From positions 2,837 through 66,836 of the forward strand of contig JAHFMX010000004.1 in assembly GCA_023267635.1 (NCBI GenBank): a stretch of DNA of 64,000 nucleotides, written 5' to 3'. Positions 11,869-31,275 of this stretch are shown here, piece after piece. A model generated the notes under the pieces. That model was not told the DNA's origin. It did no database searches and worked only from the letters and a program-made list of their open reading frames with translations. Each line of letters starts with the position of its first letter. Positions within the stretch are counted from its first letter, which is position 1. This DNA comes from a bacterium. Lineage in GTDB: Bacteria > Patescibacteriota > Minisyncoccia > Phycocordibacterales > UBA5272. A program made the position numbers and the translations under genes.

Positions 11869-13401
11869 TTAAATTCTAGTTTTTTCGATCTGGATTGATT
11901 CGAGAATATCTGATGGAATCATTTCGATTTTTGTTTCAACCATGAGACCACACTCATTTCCTTCGATCACTTCAGTAGCCTTAAGCTTTTGTGACTGAAG
12001 CTCAACAACACGACCACGTCCCATATCAACACCGCGACGAATAATCTTTACAAGAGAATTAAGTGCAATGCGACCAGTTTCTACACGGCCTCCAATAACA
12101 TGCTTTTCTTTCTGAGTACTAAATGTTTTAAGAACCTTAAGTGTTCCAAGTACAACTTCCTTTTCTTCGTATGGAAGGCGATCAAGCACTACGGTGTCAA
12201 ACCATTCAGAAAGTTTGTAGATGATATCAAAAGTTTCAGGAACAACCTTGAAGCGGTCTGCTTGTTCTCGAGCCTTACCGTCAATCTTTACCGCAAATCC
12301 AATGATAAGAACTTTTTCGTCTGATGAAGCTTGAATAATATCTCCCTCAGTGATTTGTCCAATTCCTTGCGCGATAATTTTTATCTTCACATGTTCGGTC
12401 TCTCTCTTTTGTAGTTCACGAATAACCGCTGAAAGTGTTCCGAGAGAATCTGCTTTAACGACGATAGGAATAACAACTCTAGCATTTCGGTAGAGGCGAG
12501 GGTCTAGCACTGTTTGAACAGCATTTGATTGTGCTTCAGATTGTAACTTCTCCATTAGTTTTTTGTCAGCAGATGAAATGAAAAGTGAACCAGCAAGAGG
12601 TGCTTCGTCAAAGCCTGTAACTTTTATTGGCTGACCTGCGTGTGGGCTTTTAATTGTTTTGCCCAAGAAGTCTTCAATAATACGAATAGGGGAAAGTGCC
12701 GTACCAGCCAAAATAGAACCAGATGCTGGAAGCGTACCGTCTTTAATGATGAGTGCGGCTGAGATACCACGCTTCTGGTCTACGAAACTTTCAAGTACAT
12801 ATCCTGTTGCTTCAACACCGAGGTTTGCTTTTAGGTCGTTCACTTCAACCACAAGAAGAAGTGTCTCAAGTAGGAAATCAATTCCTTGTCCTGATTTTGC
12901 AGAAATTTCTACGCACGGCACTTCACCTCCGTATCCTTCGATGTAAATTCCATTCTCAACAAGAGAATTCTTAGTCTTCTGGATATCAGCTCCTGGCTTA
13001 TCAATTTTATTGATGGCAACAACGTATGGAAGTTTGTGAGCTTCAATTGTTTTCCATGCTTCGAGCGTTTGAGCCTTTACTCCGTCTTCAGCTGAAACAA
13101 TAAGGATCGCAATATCTGCGATTTCTACACCGCGTTCACGCATAGACTGGAACGCTTCGTGGCCTGGTGTATCGAGGAACGTAATTGGAAGCACTCGTCC
13201 GTCGGTTGCTGTGTGCTGTACTTCGTATGAAGAAATACGCTGTGTGATACCTCCAGCTTCACCGTCCACTACGTTTGATTTGCGAATGAAGTCAAGAAGA
13301 GATGATTTTCCATGGTCGACATGACCAAGAACCGCAATAACTGGCTGACGAGAAACTATCTCCTTTTTCGGGGTGTTTGTAGGCATAAAATAATGACACA
13401 A
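11869..13401 (-). CDS. infB: translation initiation factor IF-2 (short form: G domain + C-terminal domains only)
   Basis: G1 motif GHVDHGKSSLLD, DTPGHEAF, NKID; 510 aa, lacks the long N-terminal region. Confidence 0.85.
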   Translation of the reverse strand: MCHYFMPTNTPKKEIVSRQPVIAVLGHVDHGKSSLLDFIRKSNVVDGEAGGITQRISSYEVQHTATDGRVLPITFLDTPGHEAFQSMRERGVEIADIAILIVSAEDGVKAQTLEAWKTIEAHKLPYVVAINKIDKPGADIQKTKNSLVENGIYIEGYGGEVPCVEISAKSGQGIDFLLETLLLVVEVNDLKANLGVEATGYVLESFVDQKRGISAALIIKDGTLPASGSILAGTALSPIRIIEDFLGKTIKSPHAGQPIKVTGFDEAPLAGSLFISSADKKLMEKLQSEAQSNAVQTVLDPRLYRNARVVIPIVVKADSLGTLSAVIRELQKRETEHVKIKIIAQGIGQITEGDIIQASSDEKVLIIGFAVKIDGKAREQADRFKVVPETFDIIYKLSEWFDTVVLDRLPYEEKEVVLGTLKVLKTFSTQKEKHVIGGRVETGRIALNSLVKIIRRGVDMGRGRVVELQSQKLKATEVIEGNECGLMVETKIEMIPSDILESIQIEKTRI

Positions 13402-13441
13402 TTATAGCACGAAAATGTAAAGATGCCTATCTCTGTAAGGC

Positions 13442-13924
13442 TTAGTTCTTATGAGCTTGTTTGGACTCTTCGAGTACTGCTTGCTCTTCTTCTGTGAGGT
13501 CGTGCGTGCTTGTGTACCCTGAAACTGGTTTCGCAAAAACAGATACTCGGTCTCGGTGATGAAGTGAAGACAAAATGAGTCCGTTTCCGAGTTCATTCAC
13601 GAGTGCTACAGCAAATGATTGATTACTTCCATTTTGATCAAAAGCTTTGAAGCGCATTGTTGATACGTTTCTAATAGACTGCGCGAGACGCTTGTCTAAT
13701 TTGAGAGCATGTTCAGCAATGAGCTCGTCATGCTTCTTAAGGTCATCTACTTTATCAAGATAGGTGCGAATGACGGACTCAAGACTTTTTGCATTTTCTC
13801 CACGAGTGAAAACAGAAATTTTATAATGAAGATATACAACATAGAGAAGAAGGATGACGAGTGCAATAGAGAGCGGAATACTTGGATACTGTAATGCTTG
13901 CTGAGCTAGAGAAGAGAGATTCAT
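13442..13924 (-). CDS. hypothetical membrane-anchored protein (DUF4446-like, CPR-typical)
   Basis: N-terminal TM (IALVILLLYVVYLHY) plus coiled region. Confidence 0.5.
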   Translation of the reverse strand: MNLSSLAQQALQYPSIPLSIALVILLLYVVYLHYKISVFTRGENAKSLESVIRTYLDKVDDLKKHDELIAEHALKLDKRLAQSIRNVSTMRFKAFDQNGSNQSFAVALVNELGNGLILSSLHHRDRVSVFAKPVSGYTSTHDLTEEEQAVLEESKQAHKN

Positions 13925-23803: not shown

Positions 23804-24265
23804 TTAACTACTAACTCCTGACTTGGATTCGTGTTCCTCGGTGATCACTTCAACGTCTTCTTGAATTTCATCCACATCCTCCTGAATCTCATCAATATCT
23901 TCTTGCATTTCTTCCACGTCTTCAGCGATCTCCTCAACGTCCTCAGCAATCTCTTCGACATCTTCTGCAATTTCTTCAACGTCTTCTTGAATTTCATCAA
24001 TATCTTTTTCAACGTTGGCTAGCGCTCGCGCCTGATGGTTAACACTCATTTGAATGAAGATAGAGAGATAAATTGCTTCAAGAGATACGACTGTTGTTAA
24101 TACGAGGAGAACTCGATCTAGGCCAACACCCATAAGCACAAGCGTAAAAGCGCCTATAAATAAAAAGGTGTGAACAATGACAGACCAAATCGATCCTGTC
24201 CACTTGGTGATTTTAAGCGCAAGGATTTCTAGGTCATTTATTGGGGTGTTTTCATTTTTTTTCAT
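23804..24265 (-). CDS. DUF1003-like membrane protein with acidic heptad-repeat tail
   Basis: Two TM helices then (EDVEEIA)n repeats. Confidence 0.5.
   Translation of the reverse strand: MKKNENTPINDLEILALKITKWTGSIWSVIVHTFLFIGAFTLVLMGVGLDRVLLVLTTVVSLEAIYLSIFIQMSVNHQARALANVEKDIDEIQEDVEEIAEDVEEIAEDVEEIAEDVEEMQEDIDEIQEDVDEIQEDVEVITEEHESKSGVSS
23839..24010. repeat. coding 21-nt tandem repeat (about 8 units)
   Basis: catccacatcctcctgaatct / catcaatatcttcttgcattt / cttccacgtcttcagcgatct ...; encodes EDVEEIA heptads. Confidence 0.7.
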
Positions 24266-25688: not shown

Positions 25689-28577
25689 ATGGAATCATAT
25701 AATCCTAAAAACATAGAACCTAAGTGGCAAAAGAAATGGGCAGACACAAAGCTCTACGAGACTGATATTTCTACCACAAAAAAGAAAATGTATGTTTTGG
25801 ATATGTTTCCATACCCATCAGGTGAAGGGCTCCACGTCGGACACCCTAAAGGATATATTGCAACAGATATTTATTCTCGCATGAAGAAGATGAGTGGATT
25901 TGAGGTGCTTCACCCAATGGGATGGGATGCTTTCGGTCTTCCTGCTGAGGAATTTGCTCTTAAACATAAAGTTCACCCACGAGTAGCTGTAGAGAAAAAT
26001 ATTGCTCGCTTTAAAGAGCAGCTTTCAATCATTGGATGTAATTATGATTGGACGAAAGAAATTAATACAACCGATCCAGAATTTTATAAATGGACTCAGT
26101 GGATTTTTAAACAAATGTGGAAGAAAAATCTCGCATACGAAAGTAACGAACCTATCAACTGGTGTCCATCATGTAAGACTGGGCTTGCGAACGAGGATCT
26201 AGAAGGAGACTCATGTGAGCGCTGTGGAAGTAAAGTAGAAAAGAAACCACTTCGACAGTGGGTACTTAAGATTACTGACTATGCAGATCGCATGATTGCA
26301 GATTTGGATAAGTTGGAATGGCCAGAAGGTGTAAAGCTTGCGCAGAAGAATTGGATCGGAAAAAGTGAAGGTGCAGAATTTGATTTTGAGTTAGTTGCGG
26401 GAATGGGTGTTCCCGTATCTCAAAAAGTATTCACCACACGACCAGACACGCTCTACGGCGCAACGTTTGTCGCTATTTCAGCTGAGCTTGCAAATACATG
26501 GATTAAAAATGGTTGGGAGACAACGAATGAGGTTGTTAGTTTTGCTGCCGCGCTCATACATGAACAAGAGTCTCTTGGGTATGGAGCAGAAAAAGAGAAG
26601 AAGGGAATATTCACTGGTGTCTACGCAATTAACCCAGCAACAAAGGAAGAGATTCCTGTGTGGATTGCTAACTATGTTATGGGAGGAGTGGGGACAGGGG
26701 CGCTTATGGCGGTCCCAGCTCATGATGACCGTGATTTTGAATTTGCTCAGATATATAATCTTCCAATTAAAGAAGTTATTCGTCCGTATGTTATTGATCA
26801 TGTGAACGCCCCACGAGCTGATAAGGTTACAAAAGTTCGTCGTAACGTGCACGCAATTGTGTATGATCCAAAGACTAAGAAATATTTGATACTAAGAAAC
26901 TCAATTCATAATTGGGACACGATTGTAATCGGCGGAGTAGAGGAAGGAGAAGATTTGATTGAGGCTGCTAAGCGAGAACTTGCTGAAGAAACGGGGTATA
27001 CAGATGTTGTATATAAGAGAACGCTTGGTTTCCCTGTACAGGCGGGATATTTTGCACCTCATAAAGATGAGAACAGATTAGCAATCGCCTCTGCACTTTA
27101 TTTTGAATTAGAAAGCGATACTAAGGTTGAAATTCCAACTGATGGGGAGAATGAGGGAAATGAGATCGTGTGGGTGGACGAATCAGATTTTGCTTTAGGT
27201 AAAATGATTAATTCAGAACTTGGACATTGGCTCGCTAGACTTAAGACAGGTAAAGATGTCGCGTATACAGGGGCGGGCGTACTAGTTAATTCTGGAGATC
27301 ACGACGGACTCACCTCTGAAGAAGCGTGCAAGAAAATAACAGAAGTTGTCGGAGGAAAGCTACTGTCTCGCTACCGTTTGAAGGATTGGGTATTTGCTCG
27401 ACAAAGATATTGGGGAGAACCTTTTCCAATTGTGTTTGATGAGAATCACGTTGCGCACGTTGTTGCTGACAGTGAGCTTCCCGTTAGGTTACCAGAAGTT
27501 GAAAAGTATGAACCAACAGGAACAGGGGAAAGCCCACTTGCTGCGATAGAATCTTGGGTGAATGTTACTGGGTATCTTAACGAAGAAGGGGAGTTTGTAA
27601 GTTGCGACTCATCTCATCCACAAGCTAGGCGTTTTACTCGCGAAACAAACACCATGCCACAATGGGCGGGGTCATCGTGGTACTATCTTCGTTTTGCGGA
27701 TCCTCACAATACTCAAGCGCTCACCGATAGCGGCATTGAAAAGAAATGGCAGCCAGTGGACGTGTATGTGGGAGGAGATCATGCAACTCGCCACTTAATC
27801 TACGCTCGTTTTTGGCACAAGTTTTTGTATGATATTGGTGTCGTATCAAACGACGAACCTTTTTCGCGACTTGAGTTTCTCGGATTTATCCTCGCTGAAG
27901 ATGGACGCAAAATGAGTAAGCGCGCAGGAAATGTTATCAATCCAGATGATGTTGTTAATCAGTATGGGGCAGATACTCTTCGAGTATATGAAATGTTTAT
28001 GGGTCCATTTGAACAGACCGTTGCGTGGGACACAAAAGGAATTGCAGGGGCTGAGCGATTTCTCGAACGTGTGTGGAAGCTCTCTGCCAAGGTAAGCTCT
28101 GATGTAGCTGATTCAGACCAGATGAAGTCACTGCTTCATAAAACAATTAAAAAAGTAGGCGAAGATATCGAAGGTTTTAAATTTAACACTGCTATTAGTG
28201 CGATGATGATATGTCTTAATCAAGCTGACGCAGAGGCCCCTGTTTCTCAATCCTGGTACACAGAGTTTCTAAAGATTTTGGCTCCATTTGCACCTCATAT
28301 TACAGAAGAGTTATGGAATCAGTCAGGAGAAGAGGGGTCTATTCATGAGAGTGCTTGGACTGTGTATGATGAAAGTTACCTGCGGGAGGCAATGGCTACC
28401 ATCGCAATTCAAATTGGTGGTAAGTTGCGAGGAACCCTTACCGTTCCTCATGATACGACAGAGATACACCTAGTAGATGAGGTTAAGAAAACTGATTTCT
28501 TCCAAAAATATGTCGGAGAGGCTACTCCTAAAAAAATCATTTTTGTGCCCAACAAGCTCATAAATATCGTAATTTGA
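25689..28577 (+). CDS. leuS: leucyl-tRNA synthetase with an inserted NUDIX hydrolase domain (aa ~365-523)
   Basis: HIGH (HVGHPKGY), KMSKS (KMSKRAGN), CP1 editing motifs (TTRPDT, AVPAHDDRDFEFA); insert carries a perfect Nudix box GGVEEGEDLIEAAKRELAEETGY; 962 aa vs ~800-860 typical. Confidence 0.9.
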   Translation: MESYNPKNIEPKWQKKWADTKLYETDISTTKKKMYVLDMFPYPSGEGLHVGHPKGYIATDIYSRMKKMSGFEVLHPMGWDAFGLPAEEFALKHKVHPRVAVEKNIARFKEQLSIIGCNYDWTKEINTTDPEFYKWTQWIFKQMWKKNLAYESNEPINWCPSCKTGLANEDLEGDSCERCGSKVEKKPLRQWVLKITDYADRMIADLDKLEWPEGVKLAQKNWIGKSEGAEFDFELVAGMGVPVSQKVFTTRPDTLYGATFVAISAELANTWIKNGWETTNEVVSFAAALIHEQESLGYGAEKEKKGIFTGVYAINPATKEEIPVWIANYVMGGVGTGALMAVPAHDDRDFEFAQIYNLPIKEVIRPYVIDHVNAPRADKVTKVRRNVHAIVYDPKTKKYLILRNSIHNWDTIVIGGVEEGEDLIEAAKRELAEETGYTDVVYKRTLGFPVQAGYFAPHKDENRLAIASALYFELESDTKVEIPTDGENEGNEIVWVDESDFALGKMINSELGHWLARLKTGKDVAYTGAGVLVNSGDHDGLTSEEACKKITEVVGGKLLSRYRLKDWVFARQRYWGEPFPIVFDENHVAHVVADSELPVRLPEVEKYEPTGTGESPLAAIESWVNVTGYLNEEGEFVSCDSSHPQARRFTRETNTMPQWAGSSWYYLRFADPHNTQALTDSGIEKKWQPVDVYVGGDHATRHLIYARFWHKFLYDIGVVSNDEPFSRLEFLGFILAEDGRKMSKRAGNVINPDDVVNQYGADTLRVYEMFMGPFEQTVAWDTKGIAGAERFLERVWKLSAKVSSDVADSDQMKSLLHKTIKKVGEDIEGFKFNTAISAMMICLNQADAEAPVSQSWYTEFLKILAPFAPHITEELWNQSGEEGSIHESAWTVYDESYLREAMATIAIQIGGKLRGTLTVPHDTTEIHLVDEVKKTDFFQKYVGEATPKKIIFVPNKLINIVI

Positions 28578-29757: not shown

Positions 29758-31275
29758 ATGCAACTCCTCATTGATATCGCGCTTAGCCTTATCTATTTTT
29801 GTCTATTCTTACTTTTGTGCGCATGGGCATGGAGGTTCTGGATGATGTATATCAATCAGAAGTATTTAAACAAAACGAATCAGGAATATGTCATGCTTGA
29901 AATCAAGCTTCCTCGTGAAATTTTTAAATCTCCGTATGCTACTGAAGCGGCGCTAGCTTCACTTCTCCAAAGTGGAGGTATGAGTACATGGCATGCAAGG
30001 CTCTTTCAAGGAAATCTCCCGATGTATTCATCTCTAGAAATTGCATCAATTGAAGGTGTTGTTCATTTCTATATCCGTACTCAAGGAAAATTTCGTTCAC
30101 TTGTTGAATCTAACTTTTATGCACAGTACCCAGGAATAGAAATTGTTGAAGCAGATGATTATACAAACCTCATTAGGTATCATCATCTTACAAAAAATGT
30201 TAATTGTTGGGGGGAAACATATGGACTTCAAAAATCTTGGACACCAACTGATGAAGATAAGGGTGAAGCATATAAAGATAAAAAAGGTGATGACTATAAA
30301 ATGAAGGCAGATTTTCTGCCTATTAAAACATATGTTGATTATGGTTTGGATAAGGATCCAAAAGAAGAGTTTAAGATTGACCCGATTACACCTTTACTTG
30401 AAATGATGGGAAGCATTGGGAAGGGTGAATATTTATGGTATCAAATTATTCTTCAAGATGAATCAGTGTATGATGGAAAAAAGATGCCAAAAATATATGT
30501 TAATGAAATCACACACGAACATCTGTCTCTTGCGGATATGGCTAAAGAATATAAGAAGCAGAAAAAAGTAGCCGGATGGATAAAGAAAGGTGAGAAAGTC
30601 TACGACGATGAAGGGGATGTAAAACAGAAACAGATCGATAAAGATGCGGAGGGAAAACCTATCTATGGTGATGCTGTGCATCAAAAAACAAAACCTATTT
30701 CAAAAAAGGAAGTGGATGTAAGTGCCGAGGATAAAGATTTGATAGAAGCGGTAAATAAGAAACTTTCAAAGCCGCTCGCAAATGTCATTATACGTATGCT
30801 GTACCTGGCCAACACAGACGTAGGAAAATTTAATGTAGGAAATATTCAAAATATTCTTAGTTCCCATAAACCTTTTATAGGAATTAACTCTATTGGTTTC
30901 AAAAAAACAACTGACCCATATGATTTCAAATGGGAGAACTTTAGAGGGCGCCGTGTTCCATGGAGAACAGAAGAGATGTTTGAAGCATATGTTGAGCGCG
31001 AAGGATTCTACCCTCATATTGAATCAAGAAAGTCACTTGATGCTTGGGAGGATTCTATTTTCTGGGAATCAAGTATGAAAACAAGAAAGCTATGGCGCAT
31101 GATGTATGAAGGATTTTTCCATCCATTTAGTCATCCACAAGCAGATGAAGTATTTACGCTTAACCTTGAGGAATTAGCTACACTATGGCACTTGCCTGGC
31201 GCAGTTGCGACAACGCCTACGCTTCCACGTATCGACAGTGCTAAAGGAGTCGCCCCAGTTAATCTTCCTCAATAG
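29758..31275 (+). CDS. hypothetical membrane-anchored protein (505 aa)
   Basis: N-terminal TM, large Lys/Asp-rich domain; immediately upstream of mltG. Confidence 0.5.
   Translation: MQLLIDIALSLIYFCLFLLLCAWAWRFWMMYINQKYLNKTNQEYVMLEIKLPREIFKSPYATEAALASLLQSGGMSTWHARLFQGNLPMYSSLEIASIEGVVHFYIRTQGKFRSLVESNFYAQYPGIEIVEADDYTNLIRYHHLTKNVNCWGETYGLQKSWTPTDEDKGEAYKDKKGDDYKMKADFLPIKTYVDYGLDKDPKEEFKIDPITPLLEMMGSIGKGEYLWYQIILQDESVYDGKKMPKIYVNEITHEHLSLADMAKEYKKQKKVAGWIKKGEKVYDDEGDVKQKQIDKDAEGKPIYGDAVHQKTKPISKKEVDVSAEDKDLIEAVNKKLSKPLANVIIRMLYLANTDVGKFNVGNIQNILSSHKPFIGINSIGFKKTTDPYDFKWENFRGRRVPWRTEEMFEAYVEREGFYPHIESRKSLDAWEDSIFWESSMKTRKLWRMMYEGFFHPFSHPQADEVFTLNLEELATLWHLPGAVATTPTLPRIDSAKGVAPVNLPQ

Follow-up and report, generated by a model that had tools for sequence, protein, structure and literature searches.

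An apparently exchangeable Nudix hydrolase domain nested in the editing domain of a Patescibacteria leucyl-tRNA synthetase

A 64,000-nucleotide stretch of the genome of a Patescibacteriota bacterium (GenBank assembly GCA_023267635.1, contig JAHFMX010000004.1; hereafter the window) carries leuS, the gene for leucyl-tRNA synthetase (LeuRS), at 25689..28577 on the plus strand. The encoded protein is almost certainly a LeuRS with a complete Nudix domain inside its connective peptide 1 (CP1) editing domain. With more caution, the overall account that we favor is that of a functional LeuRS of the candidate phyla radiation (CPR; Parcubacteria-like) in which an active, exchangeable Nudix is nested in CP1. 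Aminoacyl-tRNA synthetases (aaRS) are among the most conserved enzymes, and extra catalytic domains in them are known mostly from eukaryotes, in which they tend to mark new regulatory functions.

Placement of the Nudix domain within LeuRS

The leuS reading frame runs uninterrupted for 962 amino acids (aa) and ends in a TGA stop, as the original prediction, made from the sequence alone, had called it. Its product scored 922.5 bits against the bacterial LeuRS model TIGR00396 (leuS_bact; cutoff 548.4), in two stretches split after residue ~385 by the insert, and a Pfam scan of the open reading frame (ORF) returned the class I catalytic domain, the editing domain PF13603, and the anticodon-binding domain, plus NUDIX. 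In a phmmer alignment with Thermus thermophilus LeuRS (1H3N), query residues 1-365 matched T. thermophilus 1-363, residues 524-737 matched 375-580, and residues 742-962 matched 638-876. Because the flanks align in this way to T. thermophilus 1-363 and 375-580, query residues 366-523 (158 aa; 26784..27257, plus strand) take the place of the 11-residue loop 364-374, which lies within the published extent of the T. thermophilus editing domain (~224-417). The editing-domain profile PF13603 was broken by the insert at position 143 of 185, and at exactly the same site close relatives without it carry no more than a loop of 5-25 aa. The original prediction had recognized an extra segment of ~158 aa and drawn it at 26781-27257 (residues 365-523), but had placed it after the end of the CP1 editing domain; by alignment, it sits inside CP1. 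The Nudix domain thus occupies a CP1 surface loop, giving three nested layers, with Nudix inside CP1 inside the Rossmann fold.

The identity of the insert was established with Pfam, the 1H3N alignment, AlphaFold2 (AF2), and Foldseek. Pfam NUDIX (PF00293; gathering cutoff 21.1 bits) matched residues 384-509, scoring 52.4 bits (E 6.9e-14) when the whole protein was scanned and 57 bits with the excised segment alone. The Nudix box GGVEEGEDLIEAAKRELAEETGY (aa 415-437; 26931..26999, plus strand) is a perfect match to G-x5-E-x7-R-E-U-x-E-E-x-G-U, just where it had first been noticed, and is the sole Nudix-box match in a six-frame translation of the window. Modeled alone, the insert folded with high confidence (predicted local distance difference test, pLDDT, 94.5; predicted template modeling score, pTM, 0.87), with the strand and helix order of a Nudix domain and the box on helix 423-435, and within the full-length model its ten-residue blocks had pLDDT values of 84-96. 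Foldseek matched the insert model to Nudix proteins only among Protein Data Bank (PDB) entries, with probability 1.0 and template modeling (TM) scores of 0.65-0.73 to many of them. These neighbors include the uncharacterised Enterococcus faecalis MutT/Nudix protein 2azw, E. coli RppH, NudI/YfaO, the Ap6A hydrolase Ndx1, MutT1, and diadenosine tetraphosphate (Ap4A) hydrolases, all only 17-25% identical to the insert. Profile match, alignment, and autonomous fold, which had been proposed as checks, all agree with the reading of a LeuRS with an embedded Nudix.

An artefact or selfish insertion, whether an assembly chimera, an intein, or a frameshifted neighboring gene, has a negligible probability. 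What speaks for it is a syntenic leuS on another contig (L001:2154-5062, JGI 3300072491), which carries the same Nudix insert (84% identical) but is split into three ORFs by frameshifts near nucleotides (nt) ~2860 and ~3730, either a sequencing error or a pseudogene. The window, by contrast, has a single uninterrupted ORF, and the same protein recurs on many independent assemblies: a 100%-identical protein (P0006) is held by both NCBI and ENA, its 90% cluster has 10 members from independent assemblies on contigs of up to 614 kb, and the syntenic contigs L001 and L095/L096 show the same LeuRS-Nudix architecture. The identical database protein, the cluster on independent contigs, and the syntenic loci rule out a chimera at the boundaries. 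An intein is likewise ruled out, as the original prediction had argued, since there is no N-terminal Cys/Ser, no C-terminal His-Asn, and no downstream Cys/Ser/Thr nucleophile; the insert starts with Pro, ends with Lys-Asp followed by Val, and is Cys-free. We found no GC or skew discontinuity at the insert and no mobile-element scars at its boundaries, where only 10-16-nt two-copy matches occurred, at chance level. The AF2 model, in addition, is confident and well packed.

Conservation of the catalytic residues

The Nudix domain is likely to be catalytically active, as a Mg2+-dependent pyrophosphohydrolase, judging from the conservation of its box. Residues G415, G416, E421, R429, E430, E433, E434, and G436 were invariant or at least 90% conserved across 63 homologues, and this conservation persisted where overall insert identity dropped to 20-30%. 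The insert is therefore not a lineage-specific insertion without Nudix catalytic residues, an outcome that the original prediction had named as one that would overturn it. Downstream of the box is a clade-specific motif, YFAPHKDENR (aa 454-463; 27048..27077, plus strand), in which K459 was at least 90% conserved, and the pattern [YF]-x-x-x-x-K-x-x-N-R recurs in all cassette types described below and in free-standing relatives.

Divergence within one cassette type points the same way. Compared with the proteins P0070 and P0075, the insert was 78-88% identical in amino acids and the surrounding LeuRS 25-68%, with third-codon positions equally saturated. Because of this equal saturation, the insert has been under stronger purifying selection than the LeuRS core within this cassette type, and recent horizontal transfer is ruled out as the source of the high insert identity. 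Such strong within-type constraint argues for a real, probably catalytic, Nudix function.

Two observations weigh against activity throughout the family. About a quarter of genome loci carry variant Nudix boxes, so catalysis may not be universally required, and one variant, GQT...xE-I-x-EE, lacking the first Glu and the Arg, is recurrent. In eight loci (L013, L018, L034, L039, L043, L046, L048, and L070), the box reads GG[IV]E.GQT.E.AA..E[IL].[EQ]E[TI]G[YF], without the first Glu, and seven of the eight (all but L013) also lack the Arg. By sequence, this group may be a catalytically altered or inactive subfamily.

Taken to its extreme, the variation could mean that the domain is a non-catalytic pseudo-enzyme with a structural or tRNA-binding role, for example compensating for a missing leucine-specific domain or modulating editing, which we consider very improbable. 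The leucine-specific domain, present before KMSKS in E. coli and T. thermophilus LeuRS and not universal, is indeed missing from this enzyme (27891-27923, aa 735-745; query 737-742 faces T. thermophilus 580-638), and CP1, which houses the Nudix domain, handles the tRNA 3' end. The variant boxes would fit such a role as well, but the catalytic Glu and Arg residues are conserved as described above, even among highly diverged inserts. Moreover, the leucine-specific domain was absent from all 70 aligned homologues, with or without a Nudix insert, and the insert-less relatives nevertheless keep HIGH and KMSK, and eight of nine keep the Thr-rich editing motif. Since insert-less relatives also lack that domain, the insert is not needed to compensate for it, and we reject compensation as an explanation.

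Exchange of the Nudix module between LeuRS backgrounds

It is very likely, from comparisons of protein and DNA sequences, that the Nudix module behaves as an exchangeable cassette with its own evolutionary history. With inserts realigned pairwise, identity in the LeuRS core and identity in the insert were uncorrelated, both across 61 database proteins (Mantel r = 0.008, p = 0.43) and across 68 genome loci (Mantel r = 0.052, p = 0.15). The protein set was chosen by similarity to the window, and the key evidence for exchange comes from all-against-all extreme pairs together with comparison of syntenic DNA. Most extreme were the proteins P0051 and P0056, 98% identical outside the insert and 30% within it, with intact Nudix boxes in both. 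The genes lie on loci L090 and L091, which belong to separate assemblies and show perfect synteny, with DNA 99-100% identical across most of 14.8 kb but ~40% identical in a ~540-nt tract that corresponds to LeuRS residues ~360 to ~540, each boundary being sharp to ~30 nt. One of the two alleles was confirmed by a third independent assembly (L092), identical to L091. A single core clade, itself 80-98% identical, contains at least four cassette types. The insert is absent from some close relatives, and a few others have a nucleotidyltransferase-like or unrecognised domain instead.

A similar tract is visible in the window itself. Against the syntenic sister allele L095, the leuS flanks had a proportion of synonymous differences (pS) of 0.47-0.55 and of nonsynonymous differences (pN) of 0.04 (dN/dS ~0.05), whereas residues ~361-560 had a saturated pS of 0.78 and a pN of 0.19. 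Ranges were 0.71-0.88 (pS) and 0.14-0.25 (pN) inside the tract and 0.34-0.65 and 0-0.13 elsewhere. At the protein level, 46-47 of ~101-115 differences fell within the insert, whose length alone would predict ~17-19. This approximate recombination tract (aa ~361-560; 26769..27368, plus strand) comprises the Nudix domain plus ~35 downstream CP1 residues and is the counterpart of the segment swapped between L090 and L091 (aa ~360-540). The elevated synonymous divergence indicates that a diverged cassette was imported by recombination, rather than positive selection only; the saturated synonymous sites rule out positive selection alone at this locus. Breakpoints lie in conserved flanking leuS sequence, on the left in …AVPAHDxRDxxFA…LPIK and on the right in …NSGxxxGL…EEAxxKIT, which fits homologous recombination or gene conversion and not site-specific insertion. 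Divergent Nudix alleles replace the module through recombination in conserved flanking leuS.

Two further stretches differed between L090 and L091. At nt 10801-11100 of L090, identity was ~57-65%, inside an uncharacterised ORF of ~500 aa just downstream of leuS that is homologous to window 29758-31275, and at nt ~13201-13650 a second divergent stretch coincided with a small gene called in L091 only. Both are strain-variable hot spots next to the Nudix cassette.

We also observed a free-standing 278-aa gene (P0005), which combines a C-terminal CP1 tail (VPAH...IKQVV), an intact Nudix, and a post-insert LeuRS segment. It is present at L002:2246-3082, L003:1690-2526, and L004:941-1777, and no other part of leuS was among the called genes of these three contigs. 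By BLASTP it was 33% identical to the insert, and its identity to window aa 312-546 was 31%. The gene may be a relic, may encode a protein in its own right, or may serve as a donor in cassette conversion.

Strain-level replacement of the cassette in otherwise near-identical genomes would also fit a conflict or immunity module, that is, a polymorphic CP1 cassette under diversifying or frequency-dependent selection whose Nudix, or alternatively nucleotidyltransferase-like, domain neutralises a nucleotide-based toxin, signal, or phage factor targeting LeuRS or tRNA-Leu. The several cassette types within one core clade, the presence/absence polymorphism, the nucleotidyltransferase-like or unrecognised domains that can fill this loop instead, the DUF559/REase endonuclease domain that one relative nests, and NADAR and HIT genes near leuS in L090/L091 are all compatible with this idea. 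We nonetheless think it improbable. Neither the insert nor the whole protein matched any PADLOC-DB family at E <= 0.01, matches in PHROGs were generic Nudix families only, and we identified no toxin or defence genes linked to it. Neutral recombination through conserved flanks can also give rise to mosaicism, and the strong purifying selection within cassette types speaks against a simple arms race of the domain itself.

Prevalence among CPR LeuRS

A nested Nudix is a common state of LeuRS in Patescibacteria/CPR and a lineage-wide feature, as judged from sequence searches. Among the 120 protein clusters closest to the full-length sequence, 104 carried a precomputed PF00293 match, and JGI names one relative "leucyl-tRNA synthetase/8-oxo-dGTP pyrophosphatase MutT." A scan of GTDB species representatives gave 80 loci, almost all from Patescibacteria/CPR metagenome-assembled genomes (MAGs), with taxa including Paceibacterota, Moranii-, Taylor-, Magasanik-, Uhr-, Berkel-, and Peribacteria. 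Full-length ORFs were present at 74 of these loci, and the region spanning the site (query aa 360-545) measured ~175-200 aa in 70 of the 74 and 141-156 aa in the other four. Pfam NUDIX matched in 67 of the 74 (68 of 75 segments counting the window), and the strict Nudix box was kept in 48. A survey of related CPR genomes, proposed with the original prediction, thus recovered the same insertion widely. These proportions are biased upwards, as matches were ranked by similarity to a Nudix-bearing query, and to that extent they overstate prevalence.

An exhaustive phmmer search of 1.84 billion representatives returned 366 relatives of the insert at E <= 1e-3, 114 of them at E <= 1e-10. Some of these are the size of LeuRS, others are gene fragments, and others again are free-standing Nudix proteins of 155-190 aa; among 20 larger matches scanned, 19 were LeuRS and the exception was a free-standing tandem Nudix. 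A word-index search with the insert had given 5 matches and an impression of rarity, which the genome scan, the full-length search, and the exhaustive phmmer search identify as a sensitivity artefact. No description of a LeuRS-Nudix protein was found in a full-text literature search, in line with the original prediction, which was aware of none. The fusion is already tagged in databases but has apparently been neither described nor characterised.

The same CP1 loop holds other sequences in some loci. A nucleotidyltransferase-like domain (Aminoglyc_resit / NTP_transf_5) occupies it at L038:4120-4626 and L068:4093-4578, on weak matches, L068 alone being above the Pfam cutoff. In L029, L031, L036, L058, and L064, the site holds 118-166 aa without a match to any Pfam model.

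Several loci carry labels from outside CPR. Four of them (L040, L044, L052, and L076, with Clostridia or Clostridium labels) form a tight LeuRS-Nudix clade with 76-80% core identity, nested among CPR sequences, which represents either horizontal transfer of a CPR-type leuS into Clostridia or mislabelled or mis-binned MAGs. Other non-CPR labels were Candidatus Fimivivens (L025, a 3-kb contig), Gammaproteobacteria (L068), and Bdellovibrionales (L029).

Possible substrates and role

Under our favored account, the Nudix would be a second, independent active site on LeuRS. Nesting could be tolerated because the Nudix termini should lie close together, as expected for a loop-spliced domain, and in a minimal genome, fusion would guarantee that the Nudix is co-expressed stoichiometrically with an essential enzyme. 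The best candidates for its targets would be Ap4A/Np4N by-products of aaRS or the ends of RNA bearing 5'-ppp or Np4 caps.

To place the insert among characterized Nudix enzymes, a profile of 75 insert sequences was searched against PDB sequences. The top matches were AvrM14-A/B (E 3.6e-11 over ~120 residues, profile positions 35-154), in which sKDtQRV aligns with hKdvnrv of the profile, so that a K-D-x-x-R motif after the box is common to both. AvrM14 is described as an mRNA-decapping Nudix effector (bioRxiv 10.1101/2023.11.14.566975). The uncharacterised MutT/Nudix proteins 2azw and 3smd came next, and further matches included Ap4A hydrolases (lupin, Aquifex, and Chlamydia CT771), ADP-ribose pyrophosphatase, Dcp2, and NudI. 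The Ap4A hydrolases had E-values of 1.4e-7 (1f3y), 1.8e-7 (3i7u), and 2.4e-7 (CT771), all weaker than AvrM14, and their TM scores in Foldseek were 0.59-0.61. RppH aligned with the insert model along its full length (151-157 columns) at TM 0.66-0.68 with 17-18% identity, and other Nudix classes scored similarly. A PDB search with the single insert sequence gave generic box-driven matches only (E ~1e-3). Y454 is found 17 residues past the Nudix box, and across cassette types this position or its neighbor is repeatedly a Tyr or Phe; by a rule attributed to Dunn and colleagues (1999), asymmetric Ap4A hydrolases have a Tyr ~16-18 residues after the box.

On this basis, we tentatively suggest that the substrates belong to the cap or dinucleoside-polyphosphate class: Ap4A, Np4N, or RNA ends with 5'-ppp or Np4 caps. 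Ap4A and Np4N are made as side products by aaRS. The original prediction had proposed hydrolysis of Ap4A or mis-activated adenylates, or de-capping, and of these the first and last gain some weak backing from the decapping, RppH, and Ap4A-type relatives. Hydrolysis of aminoacyl-adenylates is less likely, because this would require Nudix cleavage of adenylates without a nucleoside-diphosphate-X linkage; aminoacyl-adenylates are not classical Nudix substrates.

Other results count against this assignment. Equivalog models for RppH, NudB, and NudE scored 23-28 bits against cutoffs of 103-169, none of which was reached; the RppH equivalogs NF001938 and NF001936 in particular scored 23.5-27 bits against cutoffs of 116-118. 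Nucleoside triphosphate (NTP) pyrophosphatases (NudI/YfaO and MutT1) and ADP-ribose pyrophosphatase scored similarly as fold neighbors. Free-standing relatives lie in nucleotide-salvage and house-cleaning neighborhoods (dUTPase, kinases, and HAD), which would also fit a generic house-cleaning role.

A generic role is the essence of a different explanation, a fusion of convenience in which the domain would be a house-cleaning or salvage pyrophosphatase for non-canonical or surplus (d)NTPs or NDP-X compounds, functionally unconnected with leucylation, and LeuRS a permissive, constitutively expressed scaffold in a genome-reduced organism. We hold this to be possible but unlikely. Other CPR LeuRS nest Ham1/ITPase, HAD, alpha/beta-hydrolase, ASCH, methyltransferase, or extra Nudix domains, a CPR isoleucyl-tRNA synthetase (IleRS) nests a histidine phosphatase, and close relatives manage without the insert. 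The gene of the closest free-standing relative of the insert (P0003) has argS and ileS as its direct neighbors on either side, and the surrounding island contains a further five Nudix genes, a dUTPase, dNK/Tmk, an AAA_18 kinase, and a HAD hydrolase, and a second (P0004) lies directly downstream of a HAD hydrolase gene; NudI/YfaO and MutT1 are, as noted, among the fold neighbors. On the other hand, among the larger matches this Nudix clade is nested in LeuRS only, in the 19 of 20 cases given above, which a random scaffold would not lead one to expect. Decapping and Ap4A enzymes, not NTPases, gave the best profile matches, and constraint within the cassette type exceeds that of the LeuRS core.

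We also considered a more specific form of the favored account, in which the CP1 loop is a dedicated cassette site whose modules are swapped by gene conversion and selected for action on RNA 5' ends or nucleotide effectors at the synthetase. This we regard as doubtful. Donors would possibly be free-standing or fragmentary copies such as P0005, and the modules occasionally nucleotidyltransferase-like or of other kinds. For example, a module might de-cap or de-triphosphorylate tRNA-Leu, whose 5' end lies beside the CCA end entering CP1, or might destroy a nucleotide toxin or signal aimed at LeuRS.

Other nested domains in CPR synthetases

Nesting is not confined to this loop. CPR LeuRS accept insertions at two more sites; the first lies where CP1 begins, near query aa 235-246, and the second follows CP1. 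Guests at these sites include extra Nudix domains (as many as three in one protein), Ham1/ITPase, HAD, alpha/beta serine hydrolase, ASCH, SAM-methyltransferase, Nudt16-like, and DUF559/REase endonuclease domains, and protein lengths reach ~1500 aa. The relatives of the window LeuRS concerned are P0030, P0060, P0076, P0084, P0103, P0108, P0109, P0124, P0125, P0135-P0137, P0139, P0150, P0152, P0153, P0170, and P0184, and loci L063, L067, L081, and L082. In a Patescibacteria MAG (GCA_040384045.1), the IleRS encoded beside P0003 (L085:6969-10466; TIGR00392, 903 bits) nests a histidine-phosphatase domain (His_Phos_1 / ribazole-phosphatase-like) at aa ~496-664. Because both this IleRS phosphatase and the other nested LeuRS domains were found, we read the pattern as suggesting that nested hydrolases in class Ia aaRS are a general CPR habit, with synthetases as scaffolds for small hydrolases.

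Features of the LeuRS and gene surroundings

Apart from the insert, the protein is predicted to be a functional LeuRS that retains every synthetic and editing signature. All of the catalytic and editing motifs named in the original prediction were present where expected, but the literal sequences are HVGH and KMSKR, not HIGH and KMSKS. On the plus strand, the HIGH-type signature HVGH (aa 49-52; 25833..25844), found by regular expression on the translation, was invariant in 70 homologues. It is followed by a ZN1-type Cys4 cluster, CPSC...CERC (aa 159-179; 26163..26225), with C159, C176, and C179 invariant in the homologue alignment. The N-terminal part of CP1 (aa ~220-365; 26346..26783) matched PF13603 with 183 bits over profile positions 1-143 of 185, up to aa 367. 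Motif matches place within it the Thr-rich editing motif TTRPDT (aa 249-254; 26433-26450), AVPAHDDRDFEFA (aa 341-353; 26709-26747), with the conserved Asp in AVPAHDDRD (aa 341-349), and LPIKEVI (aa 358-364). The C-terminal part (aa 524-~565; 27258..27383), aligned from T. thermophilus residue 375, leads back into the catalytic core and contains YTGAGVLVNSGDHDGL (aa 526-541), matched on the translation. The KMSKS-type signature KMSKR (aa 741-745; 27909..27923) was a motif match, and the Anticodon_1 domain (aa 814-924; 28128..28460) was assigned by Pfam PF08264 with 72.6 bits. A full-length AF2 model built from a 70-sequence alignment had a pLDDT of 88.3 and a pTM of 0.77, and Foldseek matched it to E. 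coli and T. thermophilus LeuRS structures at E ~1e-78 with target-normalized TM (TMt) up to 0.82 (5omw_A, E 5.6e-79, TMt 0.82).

Two genes upstream of leuS encode membrane proteins, one a DUF948-like coiled-coil protein (minus strand) and the other a DUF5671 protein, and downstream are genes for a Sigma70_r4/HARE-HTH protein and a ~505-aa protein without a Pfam match. Gene order around leuS is the same in L001, L090/91, and L095/96. The DUF948-like gene (window 23804-24265, minus strand), whose position upstream of leuS is kept in these loci, encodes a small membrane protein just under the Pfam cutoff, with a tail of acidic repeats: EDVEEIA (three times), EDIDEIQ (twice), EDVDEIQ, and similar units. 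A HIT/DcpS_C gene lies ~2-3 kb upstream of leuS in L090/L091 (2952-3335) and L095 (3265-3648) and likewise in L096, and a NADAR gene lies immediately upstream of leuS in L090/L091 (5437-5916). Enzymes of the HIT family use nucleotide adducts and Ap(n)A-like compounds as substrates, and a functional theme common to them and the Nudix module is possible. Antisense or alternative-frame ORFs overlapping leuS had no support. The window contains seven tRNA genes, two of them for tRNA-Leu, and no Rfam family besides tRNAs.

Significance and comparison with known systems

Together, these observations point to a whole bacterial radiation whose LeuRS bears, within its proofreading domain, a second enzyme: a hydrolase that is apparently active. 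More surprising than the fusion itself are the triple nesting and the combination of a recombining cassette with strong within-type constraint. Should the Nudix act on Ap4A or cap-like nucleotides, the charging of tRNA would be tied directly to the turnover of alarmones or RNA caps in organisms with minimal genomes. Should it instead be a conflict module, no polymorphic "immunity" site would have been seen in a synthetase before it, and if CP1 is a dedicated cassette site, it would represent a new class of active site on an aaRS, both polymorphic and modular. The nested Ham1, HAD, and alpha/beta-hydrolase domains and the IleRS histidine phosphatase suggest an unexplored CPR habit of packing metabolic enzymes into the loops of translation enzymes.

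Compared with bacterial LeuRS of known structure (T. thermophilus 1H3N/2BYT and E. coli 4AQ7/4ARC), the window enzyme shows full-length homology (E 7e-189) and shares HIGH/KMSKS, ZN1, CP1 with its Thr-rich motif and conserved Asp, and the C-terminal tRNA-binding region. It differs from the T. thermophilus and E. coli enzymes in having no leucine-specific domain (T. thermophilus ~580-638) and from the T. thermophilus enzyme in the 158-aa Nudix domain that replaces the 11-residue CP1 loop.

With AvrM14 (8DP8), RppH (4S2X), the Ap4A/Ap6A hydrolases (1F3Y, 3I7U, and 1VC8), and Dcp2, the insert shares the box and the alpha/beta/alpha fold. In contrast to these enzymes, it is nested and not free-standing, is 17-25% identical to them, and reaches no equivalog threshold; the likeness to AvrM14, in profile and post-box motif, is a sequence resemblance only. 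Free-standing Nudix proteins of ~160 aa from Patescibacteria (P0003, P0004, and others) are closer, with 35-41% identity over the whole insert (for P0003 and P0004, respectively, 38% and 35% in the homologue alignment and 41% and 40% by BLASTP). P0003 and P0004 share with the insert the FY...K..NR motif and an N-terminal extension that precedes the first strand, but they are separate genes, lying beside aaRS and nucleotide-salvage genes (P0003) or a HAD hydrolase gene (P0004).

Other synthetases with a second catalytic domain offer an architectural parallel. The isoleucine--tRNA ligase of model NF040702 (N-acetyltransferase domain-containing) and the L085 IleRS are, like the window enzyme, class Ia aaRS with such a domain, but the host enzyme, the guest domain, and the site differ, and we know of no cassette exchange reported for aaRS of either type. 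Nudix domains are also joined to adenylate-forming or tRNA-acting enzymes in the NMNAT-Nudix protein NadM (NF003786) and in the Thermoproteota Trm10 model NF041071. Both models match the window protein weakly (E ~1e-3), NF041071 at the Nudix box. These fusions are unrelated to it in sequence beyond the box and join their domains end-to-end, whereas the Nudix of the window LeuRS is nested.

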